From contig OY970309.1 in NCBI GenBank assembly GCA_963716395.1, forward strand, positions 1,088,001 through 1,152,000: DNA of 64,000 nucleotides. Reading direction: 5' to 3'. Every line of letters begins with the position of its first letter. The first letter of the stretch is position 1. Below the pieces are notes generated by a model, which had not been told where the DNA came from, made no database searches, and saw only the letters and a program-made list of their open reading frames with translations. The stretch is from an uncultured Fibrobacteria bacterium (lineage in GTDB: Bacteria; Fibrobacterota; Fibrobacteria; UBA11236). Below, one piece after another: positions 27,200 to 40,997 of this stretch. A program made the translations under genes and the position numbers.

Positions 27200-29116
27200 T
27201 CAACGTTGCACAGACGGCAGCATTTTCCCGTCGGCCCGGTACGCGCCCTTGGGACCGACGATGGAGTAAGGCGGAAACTCGCGCAATTTAATCGCCGCCA
27301 TGCGCCTGGGCAAAACCGCCTGGGATCCCGACGGTACCGCAAACACAATATTGGCATTTTGAGAGAACGGCAAGACAACGCTCAGGTTGTTCAGCGCCGC
27401 TTTGACGGGAAGCATTTTCGATGCGTTCCAATAGGCGACAATACTGTCTTTGGCCAAGGCTGCCGTGTCAACCCCGACGTAGAAGATGCAGCGCACCGAA
27501 TCCTGGCCTTCGACATCGGTCGCGATATCATACGCTATCGGTTGGCCGCTCAAAAGCAGGGGAACATATCCGGTCGGCAGTTGCGTATTCGGTGAATGGA
27601 ACACGGTGCGCCCCGCGCGCGTGACCGAATCAAAGCGCACCGTGGTATCGGTTCCGAGTCCGGTAACCTGAACGTTACTGCCCCGGAAAGTATTCTGGCC
27701 TGCGAAAGCGGGAATGAACCCGGTCGCCGAAGAACCGTTTACGAAAACCGAACCGCCTTCGACACCGACGCTTTGGGCCACGAAGGTCGAACCCACCTGC
27801 GCGAACAGCAGAGGCTTGCCTTCATTGCGGGCCGGAAGCGAAATCGAATTCACCCGCGCCGACCCGTTCAAAACCAAGGTCGTGTCTTTTTCAAACCAAG
27901 GCCGCACCGAATCGGAAAGCGCCGTGGCATAAGCCGCCGCGCCCAGCGACGCGGTCAGAACGCGGGGAAAGACGGAGGCCGCCACCGTGAACACCGCATT
28001 CCCCGTGGGTAGCGCAAAAGTTACTGTACTGTCCGGCGGAAAAAGATTGAAGACGGGCAATGGGTTCGGGCCATTCCAGGCGCCATGCGAATTGTCGCCT
28101 GGGATTTGCCAATCCCAGGCGACGGTCGAGTCTTTCGACGGGGAAACAACAGTATTACTGGAGTCGGAGAACATGGATTGCCCTAAAGAACTTGTGAAGC
28201 CATTCCAACTGGAATACCGCACATTGTTGCTGACGGAATCCGGTGTTATAAATCTGGTTACTAGGATAATGTTTTTCTGTGACCCATCTTGGGTAATGTT
28301 ATTCTGCGCGGGTGGATTTGCAAAATAATTGTTTTGAATATTGCAGGTCGCGCTTAAATTACCGTCTAATAAAAACTGCGTTTTATTCACCGTATTGTAT
28401 TTCATGTCAAGGCGGTTGGTTGCCGATGCACTCAACACCCCGGAGAAGTTAAAAAGATTGTTAGAAAGCGTGATGGTACTATCGGCGGGCAGCGACAGCG
28501 CCCCGGTCGCTGAAAACATCGAATTCGCAATGCTGATGCTGCCAGCCCCCGTCAGCGACAGCGCCCCGGTCGCTGAAAACATCGAATTCGCAATGCTGAT
28601 GCTGCCAGCCCCCGTCAGCGACAGCGCCCCGGTCGCTGAAAACATCGAATTCGCAATGCTGATGCTGCTCGCGCCATCGCCGCCCCAGGCGAAAACCTTG
28701 CCCGTGTTTGCGTGTCGCCGAGAACCGTGCAACTGTCGAACAGGAGGTTGTGGTTAAAACTCAAGGGTTGAATCAAACATCGCGCCGCCGGTATTCAGCT
28801 TGAACGCCAAGCCACGAAAGACGACCGTCCCTTTCTGACCTTGCAGATGGAGCAGAACCCCACTCACCGCCACTGCCGAATCGGTTTGCGAAGCCCGCTC
28901 GAAGATGAGGCTGTCGCTGCCGTTGCCGCTTACGGTAAGACTGCCCGGGTTTTGGTAGCCCAATCCTGCGAAACGAATGTGGGTTGTGCCCGTGTTCGGC
29001 ACGGTGATATTGTCGAGGCGCGTTGTGCCGTCGATGGTGAACACGGCGGCAGGCGACAAAAACGGTGCGAACGCAATCAGCGCCGAAGTCAAAGCGAAAA
29101 TTGGGTGCCGGTTCAC
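27200..29116 (-). CDS. Short paralog (~640 aa) of the 21600-25801 surface protein; compensating indels near 28700-28760
   Basis: Identical N-terminus MNRHPIFALTS; shifted frame reads FNHNLLFDSCTVLGD like the paralog; unique C-terminus ending YRADGK. Confidence 0.7.
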
Positions 29117-29359: not shown

Positions 29360-29570
29360 GTCGTCTTTTCCAAGTAACCCCGTTCCGTGAAATAACGCAC
29401 AATTAAATAACTCTGTTCAAATTTTGGTCTTTGAATGGATGTGGAGAAGCAAGCGATCCTAATTCAAATGTATTCGATTGACGGGTATGCAAAAAAATTC
29501 ATTTAACTGAAACGGAATCTTGTCCGTATAAACAAGTGACGATTAAACTTTCGGAATCAGTAGTAATGAT
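29342..29570 (-). pseudogene. Degraded 3' remnant of a paralog of the 26027-26626 immunity gene
   Basis: IITTDSESLIVTCLYGQDSVSVK*IF aligns with ILAEDTETMSIAYLTADTVHVECIF; ends ..EKT/DTLKLK*. Confidence 0.65.
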
Positions 29571-29667
29571 ATTTCGAAGCCCCCTCGGTAGATTTCAATA
29601 TATCGAGTATGACCGGAAAATCCGCATCTTCGCGTGTTTGCATCAAGGTGATGATGGCCTGGGCCAA
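29571..29667 (-). pseudogene. Cassette 8: truncated constant segment (LAQAIITL..STEGASK), no tip
   Basis: Constant block breaks off after GASK and is joined to the unrelated immunity remnant. Confidence 0.8.
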
Positions 29668-29669
29668 AC

Positions 29670-30440
29670 CTATTGCAGCAACTTTTCCACGGTTTTGGCG
29701 TCGGCCTGTGCGTTGTGGACTCGCAGGCCATTCTTGAAGATTTCTTGCTCCACCCTATAACGCTTTAACGTGCTATCCGGCTCAGCGCTGAAAGTCCACA
29801 ATTCACCGGTTCCATTTATCACTTTTCCAGTTGCTTTTCCGGTCGGGGAAAATGATTCGGAAAAAATTAGGCGCTGGTTCCCTTTACTCGGATCTTCTTC
29901 GCGGGTCGCCTGTTCTTTCAGACGCAAATTACCGTTGGGAAAATACTCTTCGTCCGAAATAATTAACCCTTTATGGCATTGCGCCACCAATTTCTTATTG
30001 CCATTGGGCCACCATTCCTGCCATAAGCCCTCTTCTTGGCCGGAGTCGTTGTAGTTTTTGATTAAAGATGGGTGGCCGGGGGAATAGTAATTTTCATCCT
30101 TGCCGATTTGGATTCCGTTTCGATGTTCCCTGCGTCCAACAATATTACCAAGGGAATCCCAGAACAATGAAACCCCATTTTCTTTTCCATTGATATAAAA
30201 ACTGCTGTCTTTCTTTCTCCAAAGACTATCATAGTCAACTTGGAAACCATTCTGAGTCCCATTTTTATACTCAAGGGCGGAAATTATATTTTCCGATTTA
30301 TAATCGCAGTCTTACTCGAAGCTCCACCGTACCATATTTTCGTTTTTGAATTTCTTTTTCTCCACAAGTATAAGAGGGGTGCGCCAAAGGCTTCCGAATC
30401 AGAAATAGACAGCCAAACCTGAGATTTTAATTTTCGATTT
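29670..30440 (-). CDS. MORN-variant/YwqK-like partner 7 (B-type C-terminus; 5' part frameshifted, start uncertain)
   Basis: YTCGEK..YGTVELRV..; constant block YSPGHPSLIKNYNDSGQEEGLWQEWWPNG; ends VEKLLQ. Confidence 0.75.
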
Positions 30441-30780
30441 TATTCTCTTGAAGGATAATGTGGAATTGATCGAGAAACGGGTAGTTTGCCTTTTGCTGAT
30501 TATGATTTTCATCGAAAAACCCCTTCCCTAATCCAAAGTCATCGATCCTCTGTTTCCCCGCCTTCAGCGCATCCGCTTTTTGTTTTACAGCCACCGGATC
30601 TTCATCACCCGATCCGGGTGGCGGCAAAGGCAATTGCGACACAAAGCGCAACACCCATTTGAGAATGTGATTGCCGTTCGGTGATTTCGAAGCCCCCTCG
30701 GTAGATTTCAATATATCGAGTATGACCGGAAAATCCGCATCTTCGCGTGTTTGCATCAAGGTGATGATGGCCTGGGCCAA
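30427..30780 (-). other. Cassette 7: effector C-terminal module, tip GKQRIDDFGLGKGFFDENHNQQKANYPFLDQFHIILQENKIEN
   Basis: Constant 75 aa near-identical to the effector sub-terminus, followed by a variable tip. Confidence 0.85.
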
Positions 30781-30782
30781 AC

Positions 30783-31564
30783 CTATTGCAGCAACTTTTC
30801 CACGGTTTGTGAGTCGGCCTCCTGATTGCTCACTTCGAAGCCGTCTTTATAAATTTCGTGCAAGACGCGATAGTTTATGCGTGACGCTGTCCGGCTTGGC
30901 ATCGAATAGCCACGTATTCTCCTGTTCCATTCACCACCCTGCCGGTAGATTTTCCGGCGGGTGAAAAAGTTTCATAGAAAACCACCTTCGCGTCTCCCTT
31001 TGATGGGCTTCGCGCTGATACGCTGTTTTTTCCTTTAATCGCAAAATTCCGTTTGGAAAGTATTCTTCATCCTCAATCACTTCACCCTTTATGACATTGC
31101 GCCACCAATTTCTTATTGCCATTGGGCCACCATTCCTGCCATAAGCCCTCTTCTTGGCCGGAGTCGTTGTAGTTTTTGATTAAAGATGGGTGGCCGGGGG
31201 AATAGTAATTTTCATCCTTGCCGATTTGGATTCCGTTTCGAAACTTCCGCTTTCCCACTACTTCGCCTAGCGTATCCCAAAAAATCAAGGTTCCATTTTT
31301 TCTACCGTTAACAAAAAAACAACTGTCGTGTTTGCGCCATAAACTATCATAATGAATGGCAATACCATTTTGAATGCCTCCTTTATATTCCAAAACCGAA
31401 ATAATGTTATCCGCTAAATAGTCACAACGAACCCGAAGCTCCACTTGGCCGTATGGCCTGCTTAAGGTCTCTTTCTGTCCGCAGGTATAGGGAGTTTGCT
31501 TTGCAGAAGTAAGGGCAATGGGGATAAGCATTGCCGCCCAGATTAATCGACTATTTAATCCCAT
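30783..31564 (-). CDS. MORN-variant/YwqK-like partner 6 (A-type C-terminus; frameshifted)
   Basis: Signal peptide MGLNSRLIWAAML; YTCG..VELRVRC; overlaps tip 6. Confidence 0.78.
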
Positions 31565-31901
31565 TCTCTTTGAGTAGAGTGTGTAATTGATCCAAAAAAC
31601 CGTCATTTGCATCCGGCTCTTTATTGTTCTCATCGAAATACCCCTTCCCCAATCCGAACCTTTTAATCCGCTCTATCCCCGCCTTCAGCGCATCCGCTTT
31701 TTGTTTTACAGACACCGGATCTTCATCACCCGATCCGGGTGGCGGCAAAGGCAATTGCGACACAAAGCGCAACACCCATTTGAGAATGTGATTGCCGTTC
31801 GGTGATTTCGAAGCCCCCTCGGTAGATTTCAATATATCGAGTATGACCGGAAAATCCGCATCTTCGCGTGTTTGCATCAAGGTGATGATGGCCTGAGCCA
31901 A
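31551..31901 (-). other. Cassette 6: effector C-terminal module, tip GIERIKRFGLGKGYFDENNKEPDANDGFLDQLHTLLKENGIK
   Basis: Constant segment plus variable tip. Confidence 0.85.
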
Positions 31902-31903
31902 AT

Positions 31904-32661
31904 CTATTGCAGCAACTTTTCCACGGTTTTGGCGTCGGCCTGTGCGTTGTGGACTCGCAGGCCATTCTTGAAGATTTCTTGCTCCACCCTATAACGCTTT
32001 AACGTGCTATCCGGCTCAGCGCTGAAAGTCCACAATTCACCGGTTCCATTTATCACCTTTCCAGTTGCTTTTCCGGTCGGGGAAAATGATTCGGAAAAAA
32101 TTAGGCGCTGGTTCCCTTTACTCGGATCTTCTTCGCGGGTCGCCTGTTCTTTCTTAGACGCAAATTACCGTTGGGAAAATACTCTTCGTCCGAAATAATT
32201 AACCCTTTATGGCATTGCGCCACCAATTTCTTATTGCCATTGGGCCACCATTCCTGCCATAAGCCCTCTTCTTGGCCGGAGTCGTTGTAGTTTTTGATTA
32301 AAGATGGGTGGCCGGGGGAGTAAAAGGATTCGGACTCTCCATTTAGTTTTCCGTTACTATAATTCTTTCGAGAAATGATATTTCCAAGAGTGTCCCATAT
32401 TAAACACTGGCCCTCTTTTTTACCATCAATAAAAAAGACACTATCATGTATTCTCCATTTTTTATCATAGCTTAACAGCATCCCGTTCCTAATTTTTCCT
32501 TTATATTCAGAAACAAAATTAAAATTTTTAGATAATCCGCAATCAACTCTTAATTCGATTTCACCATTAGTGGTTTTGTGCTTTTCAATTTGTCCACATT
32601 CATAAGCGCATACGAAACAAGGGAAAACAAATATCCCAAAAAAGGAAACACGAATTACCAT
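31904..32661 (-). CDS. MORN-variant/YwqK-like partner 5 (B-type C-terminus; frameshift ~32150)
   Basis: Signal peptide; YECG..IELRVDC; MORN-like repeats. Confidence 0.78.
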
Positions 32662-33014
32662 AAGCTATCCAAATTATTTTGGGCCAGTAAGGCTCTAAAC
32701 GCGATTAAAAAATCTGCATTCGCTTCTTGTGGGTCTCCATTTTCATCAACAAATCCAACTGCATTGCCAAAATCCTGAATCCGCTCTATCCCCGCCTTCA
32801 GCGCATCCGCTTTTTGTTTTACAGACACCGGATCTTCATCACCCGATCCGGGTGGCGGCAAAGGCAATTGCGACACAAAGCGCAACACCCATTTGAGAAT
32901 GTGATTGCCGTTCGGTGATTTCGAAGCCCCCTCGGTAGATTTCAATATATCAAGTATGACCGGAAAATCCGCATCTTCGCGTGTTTGCATCAAGGTGATG
33001 ATGGCCTGGGCCAA
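32655..33014 (-). other. Cassette 5: effector C-terminal module, tip GIERIQDFGNAVGFVDENGDPQEANADFLIAFRALLAQNNLDSLW
   Basis: Constant segment plus variable tip. Confidence 0.85.
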
Positions 33015-33016
33015 AC

Positions 33017-33794
33017 CTATTGCAGCAACTTTTCCACGGTTTGTGAGTCGGCCTCCTGATTGCTCACTTCGAAGCCGTCTTTATAAACTTCGTGCAAGAC
33101 GCGATGTTTGTGCGTGACGCTGTCCGGCTTGGCATCGAATAGCCACGTTTCTCCTGTTCCATTCACCACCCTGCCGGTAGATTTTCCCGCGGGTGAAAAA
33201 GTTTCATAGAAAACCACCTTCGCGTCTTCCTTTGAGGGCTTCGGCTGATACGCTGTTTTTTCCTTTAATCGCAAAACTCCGTTTGGAAAGTATTCTTCAT
33301 CCTCAATCACTTCACCTTTATGACATTGCGCCACCAATTTCTTATTGCCGTTGGGCCACCATTCCTGCCATACAGCCCTCTTCCTGACCCGAGTCGTTGT
33401 AGTTTTTGATTAAAGATGGGTGGCCGGGGGAATAGTAATTTTCATCCTTGCCGATTTGGATTCCGTTTCGATGTTCCCTGCGTCCAACAATATTACCAAG
33501 GGAATCCCAGAACAATGAAACCCCATTTTCTTTTCCATTGATATAAAAACTGCTGTCTTTCTTTCTCCAAAGACTATCATAGTCAACTTGGAAACCATTC
33601 TGAACTTCTCCTTTATACTCTAAAACTGAAATTACGTCGTATTCTTTTTTACCGGAACAGTCGACTTCTAATTCCACTTTCCCATAACGTCGCTTGAAAA
33701 TTTTTTTCTCTCCGCAAGTATAAGAAGATGGTTTACATTGCCCAAAACTGAGGAAAACAAATAAAATCAAAATTAGTCGATTACTGAATCCCAT
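33017..33794 (-). CDS. MORN-variant/YwqK-like partner 4 (A-type C-terminus; frameshift ~33372)
   Basis: MGFSNRLILILFVFLSFGQC signal peptide; YTCG..VELEVDC. Confidence 0.78.
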
Positions 33795-34131
33795 TTTCTT
33801 CGAGCAAATTATGGAATTGGTGCAAAAACCCAGCGTTCCGGTTTTGTTTTCTTCTGTTTTCATCAAAGTACCCTTCACCCTCGCCAAAATCATTAATCCG
33901 TTTAATCCCCGCCTTCAGCGCATCCGTTTTTTGTTTTACAGACACCGGATCTTCATCACCCGATCCGGGTGGCGGCAAAGGCAATTGCGACACAAAGCGC
34001 AACACCCATTTGAGAATGTGATTGCCGTTCGGTGATTTCGAAGCCCCCTCGGTAGATTTCAATATATCGAGTATGACCGGAAAATCCGCATCTTCGCGTG
34101 TTTGCATCAAGGTGATGATGGCTTGGGCCAA
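33781..34131 (-). other. Cassette 4: effector C-terminal module, tip GIKRINDFGEGEGYFDENRRKQNRNAGFLHQFHNLLEENGIQ
   Basis: Constant segment plus variable tip. Confidence 0.85.
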
Positions 34132-34133
34132 AT

Positions 34134-34921
34134 CTATTGCAGCAACTTTTCCACGGTTTTGGCGTCGGCCTGTGCGTTGTGGACTTCGCAGGCCATTCTT
34201 GAAGATTTCTTGCTCCACCCTATAACGCTTTAACGTGCTATCCGGCTCAGCGCTGAAAGTCCACAATTCACCGGTTCCATTTATCACCTTTCCAGTTGCT
34301 TTTCCGGTCGGGGAAAATGATTCGGAAAAAATTAGGCGCTTGCGTTCCCTTTACTCGGATCTTCTTCGCGGGTCGCCTGTTCTTTCTAGACGCAAAATTA
34401 CCGTTGGGAAAATACTCTTCGTCCGAAATAATTAACCCTTTATGACATTGCGCCACCAATTTCTTATTGCCATTGGGCCACCATTCCTGCCATAAGCCCT
34501 CTTCTTGGCCGGAGTCGTTGTAGTTTTTGATTAAAGATGGGTGGCCGGGGGAATAGTAATTTTCATCCTTGCCGATTTGGATTCCGTTTCGATGATTCCC
34601 TGCGTCCAACAATATTACCAAGGGAATCCCAGAACAATGAAACCCCATTTTCTTTTCCATTGATATAAAAACTGCTGTCTTTCTTTCTCCAAAGACTATC
34701 ATAGTGAACTTGGAATACCATTCTGAACTTCTCCTTTATATTCTAAAACTGAAATTACGTCGTATTCGTTTTTTAGCCGGAACAGTCGACTTCTAATTCC
34801 ACTTTCCCATAACGTCGCTTGAAAATTTTTTTCTCTCCGCAAGTATAAGAAGATGGTTTACATTGCCCAAAACAATGAGGAAAACAAATAAAATCAAAAT
34901 TAGTCGATTACTGAATCCCAT
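34134..34921 (-). CDS. MORN-variant/YwqK-like partner 3 (N-half as partner 4, B-type C-terminus; several indels)
   Basis: 5' half near-identical to the 5' half of partner 4; 3' half matches B-type. Confidence 0.72.
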
Positions 34922-35259
34922 TTTCTTCGAGCAAATTATGGAATTGGTGCAAAAAACCCAGCGTTCCGGTTTTGTTTTCTTCTGTTTTCATCAAAGTACC
35001 CTTCACCCTCGCCAAAATCATTAATCCGTTTAATCCCCGCCTTCAGCGCATCCGCTTTTTGTTTTACAGACACCGGATCTTCATCACCCGATCCGGGTGG
35101 CGGCAAAGGCAATTGCGACACAAAGCGCAACACCCATTTGAGAATGTGATTGCCGTTCGGAGATTTCGAAGCCCCCTCGGTAGATTTCAATATATCGAGT
35201 ATGACCGGAAAATCCGCATCTTCGCGTGTTTGCATCAAGGTGATGATGGCTTGGGCCAA
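34908..35259 (-). other. Cassette 3: effector C-terminal module, same tip as cassette 4 (homopolymer indel)
   Basis: DNA near-identical to 33781-34131; extended A-run at ~34951. Confidence 0.8.
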
Positions 35260-35261
35260 AT

Positions 35262-36054
35262 CTATTGCAGCAACTTTTCCACGGTTTTGGCGTCGGCCTC
35301 CTGCATTGCTCGACTTCGAAGCCGTCTTTATAAACTTCGTGCAAGACGCGATAACGCTTTATGCGTGAAGCTGTCCGGCTTGGCACTCGAATAGCCACGT
35401 TTCTCCTGTTCCATTCACCACCTTGCCGGTAGATTTTCCGGTCGGGTGAAAAAGTTTCATAGAAAACCAGGCGCTTCGCGTCTTCCTTTGACTCGGGTCT
35501 TCGTCGCTGATACGCCTGTTTTTTCCTTTAGATCGCAAAACTACCGTTTGGAAAGTATTCTTCATCCTCAATCACTTCACCCTTTATGACATTGCGCCAC
35601 CAATTTCTTATTGCCATTGGGCCACCATTCCTGCCATAAGCCCTCTTCTTGGCCCGAGTCGTTGTAATGTGATTAATGTGCTCGGCTTATTGGGGGCGTA
35701 AAATGTTGTGCGAACTCCGACGGGATATCCATTTACATAATGGGTTTTTTCAACAATATTTCCAAGTGAATCCCAGACTAAACAATTTCCGTTCTTTTTC
35801 CCCTCCACATAGAAGCAACTATCGTGTTTTATCCATCGGACAGGCCCTGAATTTGTTTTGTTAAAGCTCATGGATATCCCGCTTCGCCGGCCATTTTGAT
35901 ATTCGGATACGAATTTCGTATTCGTGTCGAGTTTACAGTTCACACGTAATTCAACTGTTCCATATGGTTTTGAATATGTTGCCCTGGTACCGCATTCATA
36001 TTCATCCGAAAAACAGATTTGAAAAAGAAGAGCGATAATCAGCAACCTGATCAT
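35262..36054 (-). CDS. MORN-variant/YwqK-like partner 2 (most divergent N-half; 3' half A/B chimeric with indels)
   Basis: MIRLLIIALLFQICFS signal peptide; YECG..VELRVNC; ATGA overlap with tip 2. Confidence 0.72.
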
Positions 36055-36404
36055 AAACCACTCAAACCATTTTTTTGCATGAGGTCAGCAAAATCTGATA
36101 AAAAGTCCTCGTCTTTATCTCGATATTTATCTGTTGGTTTAAGATTTTTTGCGAGCCCGTAATTATTTAACAACTGTTTCCCCGCCTTCAGCGCATCCGC
36201 TTTTTGTTTTACGGCCACCGGATCTTCATCACCCGATCCGGGTGGCGGCAAAGGCAATTGCGACACAAAGCGCAACACCCATTTGAGAATGTGATTGCCG
36301 TTCGGTGATTTCGAAGCCCCCTCGGTAGATTTCAATATATCGAGTATGACCGGAAAATCCGCATCTTCGCGTGTTTGCATCAAGGTGATGATGGCCTGGG
36401 CCAA
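36051..36404 (-). other. Cassette 2: effector C-terminal module, tip GKQLLNNYGLAKNLKPTDKYRDKDEDFLSDFADLMQKNGLSGL
   Basis: Constant segment plus the most divergent tip. Confidence 0.85.
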
Positions 36405-36406
36405 AC

Positions 36407-37177
36407 CTATTGCAGCAACTTTTCCACGGTTTGTGAGTCGGCCTCCTGATTGCTCACTTCGAAGCCGTCTTTATAAACTTCGTGCAAGACGCGATGTTTG
36501 TGCGTGACGCTGTCCGGCTTGGCATCGAATAGCCACGTTTCTCCTGTTCCATTCACCACCCTGCCGGTAGATTTTCCCGCGGGTGAAAAAGTTTCATAGA
36601 AAACCACCTTCGCGTCTTCCTTTGAGGGCTTCGGCTGATACGCTGTTTTTTCCTTTAATCGCAAAACTCCGTTTGGAAAGTATTCTTCGTCCTCAATCAC
36701 TTCACCTTTATGACATTGCGCCACCAATTTCTTATTGCCATTGGGCCACCATTCCTGCCATAAGCCCTCTTCTTGGCCGGAGTCGTTGTAGTTTTTGATT
36801 AAAGATGGGTGGCCGGGGGAATAGTAGAATTCTTTCTTCCCAATCTGTACTCCCATACGATGATTTTCGCGGCCAACGAGGTTGCCGAGCGTATCCCAAT
36901 AAAGACATTCGCCGTTTTCTTTTCCGTCCACAAAAAAACTGCTGTCTTTTTTGCGCCAAAGACTATCGTAATGTATTGCAATGCCATTTTGATTATCGTT
37001 TTTAAATTCTAATACGGATATATTGTTGTCTGTTTTATCAGACAAAAAGCTACAATCGACTTGCAGTTTTACTAGGCCGTAGGGTTTTTTAACAGTATTC
37101 GATTCGCCACATGAAAATGGGTTACCAGTATTCGCGTTTATCATGGATGCTGCGATTAAATAAAACAGAAATTTCAT
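36407..37177 (-). CDS. MORN-variant/YwqK-like partner 1 (intact, 256 aa, A-type C-terminus)
   Basis: Signal peptide; FSCG..VKLQVDC; repeats G..NG....Y/W...G; ATGA overlap with tip 1. Confidence 0.85.
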   Translation of the reverse strand: MKFLFYLIAASMINANTGNPFSCGESNTVKKPYGLVKLQVDCSFLSDKTDNNISVLEFKNDNQNGIAIHYDSLWRKKDSSFFVDGKENGECLYWDTLGNLVGRENHRMGVQIGKKEFYYSPGHPSLIKNYNDSGQEEGLWQEWWPNGNKKLVAQCHKGEVIEDEEYFPNGVLRLKEKTAYQPKPSKEDAKVVFYETFSPAGKSTGRVVNGTGETWLFDAKPDSVTHKHRVLHEVYKDGFEVSNQEADSQTVEKLLQ

Positions 37178-37524
37178 TTTATCGAATTTGTTTCTAAAAG
37201 TATGTGAATGTGCGCCAGAAAAACGTCGTTTCGTTTCGCCGGATCCCCTCTTTCGTCTACATATCCTTCACCTTTCCCGAACTTTTCAATCCGCTCTATC
37301 CCCGCCTTCAGCGCATCCGCTTTTTGTTTTACAGACACCGGATCTTCATCACCCGATCCGGGTGGCGGCAAAGGCAATTGCGACACAAAGCGCAACACCC
37401 ATTTGAGAATGTGATTGCCGTTCGGAGATTTCGAAGCCCCCTCGGTAGATTTCAATATATCGAGTATGACCGGAAAATCCGCATCTTCGCGTGTTTGCAT
37501 CAAGGTGATGATGGCCTGGGCCAA
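37174..37524 (-). other. Cassette 1: effector C-terminal module, tip GIERIEKFGKGEGYVDERGDPAKRNDVFLAHIHILLETNSIK
   Basis: Constant segment plus variable tip. Confidence 0.85.
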
Positions 37525-37526
37525 AT

Positions 37527-38344
37527 CTATTGCAGCAACTTTTCCACGGTTTTGGCGTCGGCCTGTGCGTTGCTGCACTCGCAGGCCATTCTTGAAGATT
37601 TCTTGCTCGACGCTATAACGCTTTATGCGTGAGCTATCCGGCTCAGCGCTGAAAGTCCACAATTCACCGGTTCCATTTATCACTTTTCCAGTTGATTTTC
37701 CGGTCGGGGAAAATGATTCGGAAAAAATTAGGCGCTTCGCGTCTCCCTTTGACTCGGATCTTCTTCGCGGGTACGCCTGTTCTTTCCTTTAGATCGCAAA
37801 TTACCGTTTGGAAAATATTCTTCGTCCGAAATAACTTAACCCTTTATGGCATTGCGCCACCAATTTCTTATTGCCATTGGGCCACCATTCCTGCCATAAG
37901 CCCTCTTCTTGACCCGAGTCGTTGTAGTTTTTGATTAAAGATGGGTGGCCGGGGGAATAGTAATTCTTCACTCCTTGCCGATTTGGATTCCGTTTCGATA
38001 ATTCCCTTTCCGCACGATACTTGACCCAAGCGTATCCCAGAACAATCAAATTCCATTTTTTTTACCGTTAAGATAAAAACTGCTGTCGTTTTTTTAGTCG
38101 CGCTATAAGACTATCATAGTGAACTGGCAATACCATTTTGAATCCGCCTTTGATATTCGAAAACCGAAATTATGTTATCCTCTAATTAGTCTGCAATCGA
38201 CGCGAAGCTCCACTTCGCCATAGGAACGTGCTTGAACTTTTTCTTTTTCTCCGCAAGTATAAGTTTGCATGTGCAGATAGTTTGAGATGACTAACACAGG
38301 AAAAACATAAAGCCTTAGATTAATCGAGCTATCTTAATCCCATT
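37527..38344 (-). CDS. MORN-variant/YwqK-like partner 0, cognate to the full-length effector (many indels, likely consensus errors)
   Basis: Homologous blocks YTCGEK, VELRVDC, YSPGHPSL..WWPNG and VEKLLQ are recoverable across frames. Confidence 0.65.
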
Positions 38345-40997
38345 CTCTTTGAGTAGATTATGAAATTCGGATACAAAAAACCGGCATTTGCAGTCCTGCT
38401 CTTTATTGTTCTCATCGAACATTTACCCCTTCGCCCGCTCCAAATTCTTAATCCGCTTTATCCCCGCCTTCAGCGCATCCGCTTTTTGTTTTACAGACAC
38501 CGGATCTTCATCACCCGATCCGGGTGGCGGCAAAGGCAATTGCGACACAAAGCGCAACACCCATTTGAGAATGTGATTGCCGTTCGGTGATTTCGAAGCC
38601 CCCTCGGTAGATTTCAATATATCGAGTATGACCGGAAAATCCGCATCTTCGCGTGTTTGCATCAAGGTGATGATGGCCTGGGCCAAACCTTCGGGAGGAA
38701 CACTTTTATAAATGGTTTGGCGCAGAGGAGCGCCCACAATTTGCTCTTTCACGATGGCTAAATCATGCAGATTTTCCGACAGCCAGTGTTTAAAATTGCT
38801 CACCCGATTGATGGCATAATCGGCGCCCATGGCTAGGGTTATTTTCCGATTCCGCGACTAAGGCGAAGCTATAGTTCTTGTACGCCGTGAAGGCGTCGTC
38901 GATTTCCTTCACATAATGAGAATCGACGGAGTACAGCAAATGCCCTAAAAATTCGCAGCCTTGCTTGGCGTCGACTTCCCAGGTCAAACCGCTGCCGCCG
39001 CCCAAACCCCAAGCCAGGCTCCAGGCAAAATGAAAACGAAACCGCCCGGCACTATAACTCACATGAAAGGATAAGTCGGCCGCAGCGCCGGCCGTGCCTT
39101 TCAGTTCGCCTTCGATCTCGGCCAAATCCGCAAATTCTTGGTGCGCGTCCGGACTCCATTGCGCCGAGAAGGTTATGCCGGCCGTGCCTTGCACGCCGGC
39201 CACCGCATGCACATCGGCTTTGGCCGAAGTTTCACTTTTGGACTTCGATTCCTGGTTGTCGGATTTCTTGTCCTGGCTCAAATCCACGGCCGGAAAGGAA
39301 ATGCAGCCGTTGGCCGATAGGCCCACGAACAATCCGGCTTTGCCGTCTATGCAGATCCGCACCAGGCATTGACCGTTGTTCTCGCGGCAAGAATTTTGGG
39401 CTTTGGGATTGCACAAAGTGGGCAGCAAATCCAATCCTTCGCGCTGGGGCAGAAAAATCTTGCCTGAAAGTTTGCCCTCAAACAAGGCGAAAGACGCGTC
39501 GCCCGAAGCCTGCAAGGAAATTTTTTTGTCTTTGAGATCAAATTCCGCTTTTCCGCTATAACCCAGGGCATAACGCCCGAGGGCCGCTTCGGGGGTGAAC
39601 TGAAACACATCGTTAGGGTTGGTTTTTTGATCCGACTTTCGCGGCCATTTCCAGACGCCGCCGACGACAGGTTCGCTTTCAAACAACTTGGCCTTCAGTT
39701 TCCCTTTCCATAGGGATTTGTCCTCCCCGTCACTTTTATTTCGCTTCAGCAATTTGTCCAGGCGCTTCTGCAAGGATTGATCCGAGGCCTTGACCCATTT
39801 CCCGGGAATTTTGCGGCCGTCTTGGCGCCAAGCCGCAGGCACGTGCACGAAATCCGTCGGCTGGCCCCAACGCGGGTTTTTCTGCACGGTCAACAATTCA
39901 TCCAAACCTTTTTCGACATCGCCGCCGGGCTTGCCTTCGAACAGTGCTTCCCATTCTTTCCGCACCTTTTCCAATTCCTGGGTGCGCGCTTTGGAATCGC
40001 TTTGCTTCCAGGCCTCGGCGGTTTTGCCCCGCAAAGCCTGGGATTTGTTCACATGGGTCGAAAAGGCATTGAAGTCCTCCTGCACTTCCAACATCAGGTA
40101 TTCTTCATTCCGCGGACTATAAAAAATGCAGCCATCAAAATCATCCTCGGTGATTTTCAACCCCCCGCTCTTCACTTCGAGCTTGGGCGAGGATTTTTTG
40201 GCCTTGAAGTAGAACGCATCGCCCGGCTTCAGCGGACCCATGCGCGTTTTTTCCGGCACACACCATTTGGCCACGGCGGCATGGTCGTTGCGTTTTTTCC
40301 CCACGGTTCCGGAATAGGTATTCACCATTTCATCCGATCCGCTTTGGCCTTTGCGGAATAGTTCGAAATGAATGAGATCGCCGGGCATGAGCCCGTCGGT
40401 ATCGACTTTGAAATGCACGATGTCGCCGATGGCGGCTTCGGTGAGAATGCTTTCTGAACTGCCGGGCTTGGTATCGTCTTCGATGTAAGCAAAACCCGGG
40501 TTCAAAAGCGCCGGTTCCGCCTCTTGGCTTTGCGCCGCCGCTGCATCCGCATCCTCGGACTTTTTCCTTTTAGGGTTGGCGCGGGCCAAGGCGCGCGTAT
40601 AGGCCCAATACAGGGCGTGCACGGCATGGTCGAGATGCGAGCCGGGAGCGACCACCAGCCACGATTCCCGGTGGTGCGGAATTTCGTGGGCGAGAAGGTG
40701 AAGGGGAGAATCTTCGGGGCGGCGCGGATATCCCGTGACGCGGGGAGGTCCGGTGCGGTACAACTCTTCCAACTCGTTGCGGTTCAACCTTTGCAAAACC
40801 CTTTCGAGGTCCAGCTGCGTCTGGTTTTTCAGCCAGGCCGGGCATTCCTTCGGCAGCCTGGGACAGGGGCCGAGGTAGTGAAATCCCCGTATGCGCGGGC
40901 TGCCCCCCAGGTAACGGCAAGGTTTCCAGGGGCAATCTTTACAGCAAGGCGCCGGGTAGGGCAAAGCTTCGGAAGGTACGGAAGCGGTTTCAGGCAT
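38330..40997 (-). CDS. Large (~890 aa) putative secreted effector/polymorphic toxin with swappable C-terminal tip; frameshift ~38845 and indels in tip
   Basis: ORF 38790..40997 joins ORF 38423..38830 by one frameshift; Cys-rich N-terminus, Ig-like segment, Gly/Ala-rich beta region, then the constant LAQAIITL..KAG block. Confidence 0.7.

Follow-up and report, generated by a model that had tools for sequence, protein, structure and literature searches.

A probable type VI secretion effector-immunity locus with an array of orphan tip-and-immunity cassettes in a soil Fibrobacteria genome

Organisation of the locus and movement of its cassettes

The stretch of 64,000 nucleotides (nt) analysed here, referred to below as the window, covers positions 1,088,001 to 1,152,000 of contig OY970309.1 (assembly GCA_963716395.1), the single-contig 3.75-Mb genome of an uncultured soil bacterium of the Fibrobacteria, and contains on its minus strand a gene for a putative type VI secretion system (T6SS) effector, followed by a tandem array of partial copies of its 3' end, each joined to a gene for a putative immunity protein. 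In the assembly the effector gene appears as two overlapping open reading frames (ORFs), which are separated by one extra base near 38.82 kb. Since an intact foreign homologue, P0004 (871 residues), reads through the region that matches this junction without interruption, the window gene is taken to be one effector gene of ~870 codons in which a single additional base causes the split. It is followed by tandem units with a period of 1113-1162 nt, each consisting of a block of 222 nt, a variable tip of 41-44 codons and an overlapping MORN/YwqK-like gene of ~255 codons that encodes a leader. The units are named A1, which is the end of the effector gene itself, to A8, and the window holds eight full blocks and a truncated ninth, all on the minus strand, with first bases at 38683, 37521, 36401, 35256, 34128, 33011, 31898 and 30777, and at about 29664 for the 32-codon remnant (Table 1). 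The ATG of the immunity gene overlaps the stop codon of the tip in A2 (as ATGA), A3 and A6, and lies 14 nt inside the tip in A5 and A7. Promoter and terminator scans gave no signal, with 18 and 20 sites versus 15.5 and 16.0 for shuffled sequence.

A second locus of the same kind (type 1) is found elsewhere in the genome (L016, G000:C1:383500-389557), where an effector 98.9% identical to that of the window is followed by four units, B1 to B4. The two loci have only 59 nt in common upstream of the start codon, and unit B2 provides a clean seventh tip allele together with an intact immunity gene.

The block has hardly diverged between units. Among the 12 type-1 blocks of the genome, variable sites number 10 of 222, seven of them in the third codon position. 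Each copy departs from A2 at three sites at most, and nucleotide identities are 97-100%. Past the block the column identity falls from 0.97-1.00 to ~0.5 within ~30 nt. At the amino-acid level the identity of the block is 0.99 within the genome versus 0.45-0.48 across genomes, and by this comparison the block is homogenised. An earlier sequence-only reading of the window, which had described a block of 75 codons as almost invariant even at synonymous sites and homogenised by gene conversion, is therefore borne out with respect to conservation and homogenisation, while the length is corrected to 74 codons.

Nucleotide-identity matrices, calculated by segment across the 12 units, further define the part that varies. 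In addition to the tip (30-70% identity between units), to which the same reading had confined the variation, the variable part includes the immunity front half (50-85% identity), an extension that this reading had missed, and ends at a second conserved patch of ~100 nt. The patch falls into two classes, with 93-100% identity within each, and the back half of the immunity gene likewise forms two classes (88-100% identity within and 55-67% between them) that are distributed independently of the tips. The variable cassettes are thus bounded on both sides by conserved sequence in common with the expressed copy, the upstream arm being the block together with the preceding ~35 nt (~255 nt in all) and the downstream arm the ~100-nt patch inside the immunity gene, and two homogenised arms of this kind make movement by homologous recombination or gene conversion possible. 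Units A4 and A5 are 97-100% alike in the tip and immunity front half and only 56% alike in their back halves, and the front halves of A3 and B4, which stand in different arrays, are 85% alike. These two pairs, along with the shuffled back-half classes, indicate that cassettes have moved by recombination in the arms.

Tip and immunity front half were further compared across 13 effector-immunity pairs. Six of these belong to this genome, A8 being excluded for its truncated front half, and seven are foreign, with L023 excluded as a near-duplicate of L020. Across these pairs the correlation between tip and front half was r=0.68, with a partial correlation of 0.67 given the block, and was reached in 9 of 5000 permutations, in comparison with r=0.24 between block and front half; with L023 included it rose to r=0.75 and was reached in 0 of 5000. 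The tip and the immunity front half are, as these correlations show, co-inherited as a unit.

At the end of the patch (window 36642-36700 and equivalent positions), units A3 and A7 join the GGG of one back-half class to the bases that follow it in the other, and this junction is a frameshift exactly at the likely breakpoint of recombination or of the consensus. Two further loci in the genome, L014 (G000:C1:3236202-3241836) and L015 (1816986-1821117), carry a 43%-identical effector paralogue, P0002 (865 residues), in the same layout, with a period of ~1.53-1.56 kb and a homogenised arm of 645 nt that is 100% identical and reaches into the beta-rich core; the tips at both loci follow the tip motif in a shorter form, the tip of P0002 being cut by a stop codon and the copy at 1.82 Mb being intact. 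Outside the array, three tandem copies of a 63-nt unit (86-100% identity) are found at window positions 28471-28675, inside a minus-strand ORF (27200-28732) of 510 residues that has a weak DUF5649 match and a 90-95% identical paralogous stretch at ~24.1-26.1 kb of the window.

Table 1. Features of the effector gene and the cassette array, in window coordinates.
Feature	Position	Strand	Remarks
Effector 5' ORF (P0001, 735 residues)	38790..40997	-	centre rich in beta-hairpins and glycine
Effector 3' ORF (135 residues)	38423..38830	-	contains block A1 (38462-38683) and TAA-shortened tip (38423-38461)
Rest of unit A1: tip remainder and broken immunity gene	37525..38422	-	fine mosaic, A7-like and B2-like
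Block A2 (222 nt, 74 codons)	37300..37521	-	
Other blocks equivalent to that of A2	36180-36401, 35035-35256, 33907-34128, 32790-33011, 31677-31898, 30556-30777	-	
Tip A2 (41 codons and stop)	37174..37299	-	
Immunity gene A2 (256 residues)	36407..37177	-	leader and MORN/YwqK-like body; only intact one in the window
Second homogenised patch, inside immunity gene (A2 copy)	36700..36800	-	3' boundary of the variable cassette
Patch equivalents, including A7 and A5	31092-31172 (A7), 33321-33402 (A5)	-	
Tip A3 (42 codons and stop)	36051..36179	-	most divergent allele
Immunity gene A3	35257..36054	-	front half in frame; back half with 13 insertions relative to A2
Unit A4	34129..35034	-	A5 tip and immunity front half (97-100%) with extra bases; other back-half class
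Tip A5	33781..33906	-	
Immunity gene A5	33017..33794	-	one extra base in conserved patch; ATG 14 nt inside tip
Tip A6 (44 codons and stop)	32655..32789	-	
Immunity gene A6	31904..32661	-	one 2-nt insertion
Tip A7	31551..31676	-	
Immunity gene A7	30786..31564	-	five 1-nt insertions; intact version (P0153) on another public contig
Tip A8	30427..30555	-	
Immunity gene A8	29670..30426	-	start codon lost (ATA versus ATG in A7); later front-half sequence identical to A5
Truncated ninth block (32 codons)	29557..29667	-	end of array

Tips as alleles of one helical scaffold

Six clean tips are present in the window (A2, A3, A5, A6, A7 and A8), and B2 of the second array is the seventh; in A1 the tip is interrupted by an in-frame TAA that follows its first 12 codons, and that of A4 equals the A5 tip with one extra T. 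A tip profile was built solely from foreign sequences, using 29 of the 34 proteins that match the module (the other five were dropped by eye, as the match ended well before the tip). Against this profile the clean tips, seven in all, reach 14.7-46.7 bits, whereas none of 1400 shuffles reaches 14.7 (maximum 11.3), so that the motif common to the tips reflects real homology, and the proposal made from the sequence alone, that the six clean tips of the window are variants of one scaffold and not unrelated domains, holds. The conserved positions of the tip are the hydrophobic ones. The motif ends in N-G-I, which in A5 and A7 overlaps the downstream ATG but also occurs in foreign full-length proteins. 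Tip identity averages 0.38 within the genome, 0.36 between this genome and nine close foreign homologues, and 0.36 among those homologues, and the alleles therefore look old and common to several organisms rather than recently diversified.

The same reading had attributed the variability of the tips to diversifying selection, which the alignment and the dN/dS (ratio of nonsynonymous to synonymous divergence) estimates do not allow to be demonstrated, because the synonymous sites are saturated. Over the 21 tip pairs the mean proportion of differing synonymous sites (pS) is 0.82 and that of nonsynonymous sites (pN) 0.42; pS exceeds 0.75 in 15 of the 21, which leaves the synonymous divergence undefined, and the remaining six give dN/dS ratios of 0.21-0.86, none of them above 1. 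The synonymous sites of the immunity front half are equally saturated. Positive selection on the tips is, on these sequences, neither shown nor excluded.

A structure prediction of the A2 module (116 residues, AlphaFold2 with a 30-row alignment; mean predicted local distance difference test, pLDDT, 89.6 and predicted template-modelling score 0.84) contains five helices, at residues 2-8, 16-26, 38-47, 62-84 and 100-112, with pLDDT values of 89-97 in the tip blocks. The tip begins at residue 76 and in this model comprises the last third of helix 4, a loop of 15 residues and helix 5. In full-length P0004, modelled from an 80-row alignment (mean pLDDT 68), the same helix-loop-helix ending is seen (pLDDT 85-98) as part of a helical C-terminal domain of residues 672-871, and both models agree with the helix-loop-helix predicted earlier for the tip from its motif. 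The accompanying expectation that the variable sites would occupy one face fits helix 5, along which the seven alleles vary with helical periodicity (moment 0.405, permutation p=0.02), but extends less well to the short tip part of helix 4 (p=0.14). Prediction of a complex between the A2 module and the A2 immunity protein (residues 16-256) gave a score of 0.00 in both runs, which speaks neither for nor against binding. Searches with the A2 module model returned only generic helical proteins (best VIA Z 5.9) and a best Foldseek E-value of 0.67.

One tip subtype, with G-K-W after the F-G turn, pairs with an immunity subtype marked by M-W-V-A-E-F-K-G in this genome as well as in foreign ones; its carriers are B2 (G000:C1 ~385.0-386.1 kb), L022 and P0187/P0189/P0190, and the pair looks like an allele lineage common to several organisms. 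Two known sources of localised variation were considered and rejected: a diversity-generating retroelement, as the alleles differ at all bases and by insertions and deletions, and an invertible shufflon, as all copies are direct repeats.

Effector and immunity families and their link to type VI secretion

While a word-index search with the effector returned its own paralogues and one weak match only, a profile search found at least 633 representatives at E<=1e-3 (136 at E<=1e-30), which puts on the map a large unnamed T6SS effector family that has no core model in Pfam or NCBIfam and no solved structure. Forty of the 150 listed matches were scanned for domains. Two of these 40 are fused to VgrG (one of them also to PAAR), one to Hcp and nine to an OmpA or PG_binding domain, two have cell-wall hydrolase domains and one a sub-threshold match to VasX_N, and 25 have no Pfam family at all. 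A distant homologue is encoded directly after vgrG in a T6SS cluster on a Cronobacter plasmid (NZ_CP017664), and the present genome itself possesses a T6SS, with matches to TssC (436 bits), Hcp (112) and VgrG (247), all over the curated cut-offs, and to PAAR (46.5 bits). By domain content and gene neighbourhood the effector family is affiliated with the T6SS, an identity that had been missed in the sequence-only reading. The ORFs upstream of the effector gave no family match, and ESM Atlas returned only clusters of 'hypothetical protein' (scores 0.81-0.82, below lead level).

The Cys-rich first ~160 residues of the effector (38790-40997) are nearly identical in the type-1 and type-2 paralogues, the remainder being ~35-45% identical, and most family members in other organisms are without this region, which may serve to load the effector onto the T6SS of this organism. 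At the centre of the P0004 model, four beta-strands of 22-28 residues are predicted within residues 468-610, with low to mixed confidence. Foldseek found nothing at E<=1e-3 with the whole P0004 model, and the best VIA-wide match (Z 7.8), to peptidoglycan-binding domains, was confined to the N-terminus of P0004 itself. Comparison with outer-membrane barrels by VIA gave best Z values of 6.0-6.9, below the level that is meaningful for this tool (for example 3qq2_A, with Z 6.4 and a root-mean-square deviation of 5.0 over 77 aligned residues). The resemblance to pore states was likewise weak and not significant, and pore formation by the effector would be a guess from these models.

The putative immunity protein has 38 homologues at 39-84% identity, including one from a Fibrobacteria metagenome-assembled genome; 5 of the 38 are labelled YwqK antitoxin by one source, and 11 carry a precomputed PF07661 domain. 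In all 29 homologues with a complete N-terminus, a segment of 16-30 residues precedes a conserved Y-x-C-G, and the uncharged run in this segment measures at least nine residues in 25 and eight in the other four. The same immunity family is found directly downstream of the effector in 8 of 11 foreign loci and not within reach in the other three. All three foreign loci with long flanks (G263, G250 and G258) consist of one effector and one immunity gene, with no orphans. In the Cronobacter plasmid locus (L031, NZ_CP017664.1, 17033-19150) the distant effector homologue is followed by two genes of the SUMF1/EgtB/PvdO family rather than MORN-like ones, so branches of the effector family may use different immunity families. 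A limited literature search, without supplements, found no description of the effector family or of a MORN-type T6SS immunity protein.

Within the phylum, the module was found in 14 of 296 genomes, this one included, and in none of 11 genomes of the same genus. Matches number 13 in this genome and two in one other, with a single match in each of the remaining carriers.

Weighing the explanations and comparison with known systems

Given the fusions of family members to VgrG, PAAR and Hcp, together with the T6SS of this genome, the locus is most likely a T6SS effector-immunity locus accompanied by an array of orphan cassettes, an interpretation drawn from sequence to which we assign a probability of roughly 0.6. 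According to this interpretation, an effector of ~870 residues, composed of a conserved N-terminal loading part, a core rich in beta-hairpins and a C-terminal five-helix domain, would be delivered into the periplasm of neighbouring bacteria, and the downstream MORN/YwqK-like protein, which has a leader, would be the periplasmic immunity protein. An orphan unit would keep the last 74 effector codons identical and combine them with a different tip and a different leader and first ~100 residues of the mature immunity protein, and homologous recombination or gene conversion could transfer such cassettes inside an array, from one array to another and to the expressed gene. Since the cassettes differ in no part of the effector but the tip, we infer that the tip forms the surface at which the immunity protein recognises its own effector.

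Several observations weigh against this interpretation. Scans of the effector core with Pfam and NCBIfam gave no match, so that no toxin family can be named, and a search of PDB sequences matched only the OmpA-like N-terminus of P0004, leaving the core without a solved fold. Neither vgrG nor a PAAR gene stands beside the locus, the sole VgrG match being at 2.68 Mb, 1.5 Mb away, and the PAAR matches at 0.055 and 1.181 Mb, the nearest of them 29 kb beyond the window. Neither type-1 locus has an unbroken expressed copy in the assembly, only one of the eight immunity genes in the window (A2) is intact, and the window proteins score 16.8 and 24.3 bits against Pfam MORN_2 (PF07661), below the cut-off of 29.6. 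The correlation between tip and immunity front half could be produced by physical linkage alone and does not imply contact. Furthermore, other genomes of the phylum are single-copy, and arrays are thus not a general feature of the family; this absence is weak evidence, however, as most genomes of the phylum are fragmented and would collapse repeats.

A possible, if doubtful, alternative is that the array is a passive relic, in which incoming modules recombined into the 3' part of the effector gene and the displaced tips and immunity genes were left downstream without ever switching back, the orphans then being at most a stock of immunity genes and the tips passengers, as proposed for Vibrio cholerae in a published model (Kirchberger 2017, PMC5361080). 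Such a history would suit tips that differ among themselves as much as from foreign homologues (0.38 versus 0.36) and cluster with foreign alleles, the pattern that horizontal acquisition would produce. It would also suit the orphan tip ORFs, for which TTG is the only start and a clear ribosome site is lacking, and the damage in many of the units. It accounts less well for the occurrence of the same cassette twice with different flanks (A4/A5) and of a related cassette in both arrays (A3/B4), or for the shuffling of back-half classes relative to tips. These features all point to exchange inside the arrays and not only to stacking, and simple displacement would have no need of the second conserved arm in the immunity gene. 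Quite improbable is a role of the tip in binding some other variable partner, such as a receptor or target in the prey or a loading partner in the T6SS spike, with the front half of the immunity protein varying for unrelated reasons. The C-terminal ends of some effectors do serve loading, and the contact between tip and immunity protein is one that we only infer; nevertheless, differences in the tip track those in the neighbouring front half of the immunity gene but not those in the block, the bounds of the cassette make the two move together, and one VgrG match and two PAAR proteins are too few partners for at least seven tip alleles.

The condition of the broken units bears on a further alternative, namely that the array is largely a product of assembly, with tandem repeats mis-resolved and the copy number, order and broken units not real. 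The lesions are nearly all insertions (~50 versus 4 deletions, relative to intact references), and the broken units are longer. Units A1, B4 and B3 each alternate between stretches of 11-25 nt that belong to two other units. For A1, 11-mers common to B2 or A7 account for 62% of the variable part, with 11 switches between the two, and B4 likewise mixes A3-like and A2-like pieces. An intact immunity gene of the A7 type, moreover, exists on another contig. Despite these signs, this explanation is highly improbable, in that consensus errors cannot create seven distinct clean tips with distinct immunity front halves, all the clean tips match foreign homologues, and the spacing of the units is regular. 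Most of the lesions are, we think, artefacts of the consensus, arising from reads misplaced among the repeats or from a population heterogeneous at these sites. Public contigs from three runs of one soil-metagenome study (X1-X3), which are short and of low depth, cover the block and the patch but not the region specific to A1. A stronger form of the effector-immunity interpretation, that of programmed switching of self/non-self identity in bacterial warfare, is unlikely: a constant T6SS toxin would have its 42-residue helix-loop-helix 'name tag' and the matching half of its immunity protein swapped jointly by gene conversion from a library of silent cassettes, much as surface antigens are varied by pathogens, and the mosaic consensus sequences of A1 and B1 (A1 being A7-like plus B2-like) would then be a trace of cells expressing different cassettes.

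The effector-immunity locus with its orphan cassettes resembles several known systems in part. In Rhs and CdiA proteins, unrelated toxin domains of 100-300 residues follow a demarcation motif, and the likeness to the present locus lies in a large conserved protein with a variable C-terminus, an adjacent immunity gene, and standalone cassettes with an upstream homology block through which recombination can replace the C-terminus. The orphan cassettes described here do have an upstream block in common with the full-length gene, each then followed by an immunity gene. However, the tips are not unrelated toxin domains: all seven fit one profile, and, being homologous, too short for a toxin domain and only 1.5 helices of a five-helix domain present throughout the family, they differ from the C-termini of those systems. 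Colicin E nucleases, in which one conserved fold occurs as many alleles, each neutralised by its own immunity protein via a small variable surface, offer a parallel in the many alleles of one toxin fold, although they differ in fold, secretion route and immunity family and the contact of the tip is here a putative one. Antigenic variation at pilE/pilS, where an expressed gene is accompanied by partial silent copies whose variable segments are bracketed by conserved sequence and form mosaics, is matched by the expressed effector, the partial silent copies, the conserved brackets and the mosaic copies of the present locus; unlike those of pilE/pilS, the cassette spans two genes, for putative partners, and competing bacteria rather than a host would be the selecting agent.

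Closest among the described systems are the orphan immunity arrays of Vibrio cholerae, in which a T6SS effector gene and its immunity gene stand ahead of a series of additional immunity genes; such arrays arise by homologous recombination, and their alleles resemble those of other strains (Kirchberger et al., 2017, PMC5361080). Unlike those arrays, as outlined in that account, the present locus retains in each of its units the same 74 effector codons and a tip that looks intact; it also confines the polymorphism of the effector to 41-44 residues within one fold and has a second conserved arm in the immunity gene. Polymorphic toxin systems that include orphan C-terminal cassettes have also been outlined (Zhang et al., 2012, PMC3482391). 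The likeness of the immunity protein to YwqK/MORN_2 (PF07661) antitoxin-like proteins is carried by the labels and domains of its homologues, the window proteins themselves scoring below the cut-off, and, unlike YwqK/MORN_2 proteins, the immunity family of the window has a secretion leader and a conserved Y-x-C-G at the start of the mature protein.

If the tip does set specificity, the cassette would be a minimal portable module of effector-immunity recognition, by which a lineage could change its compatibility type without changing its weapon, and the seven natural allele pairs would serve for probing how recognition is encoded. Orphan toxin-immunity arrays as such are well known, and in those described the swapped part is, to our knowledge, a whole toxin domain, whereas here the putative toxin is constant and only a small helical tip and half of the immunity protein change.

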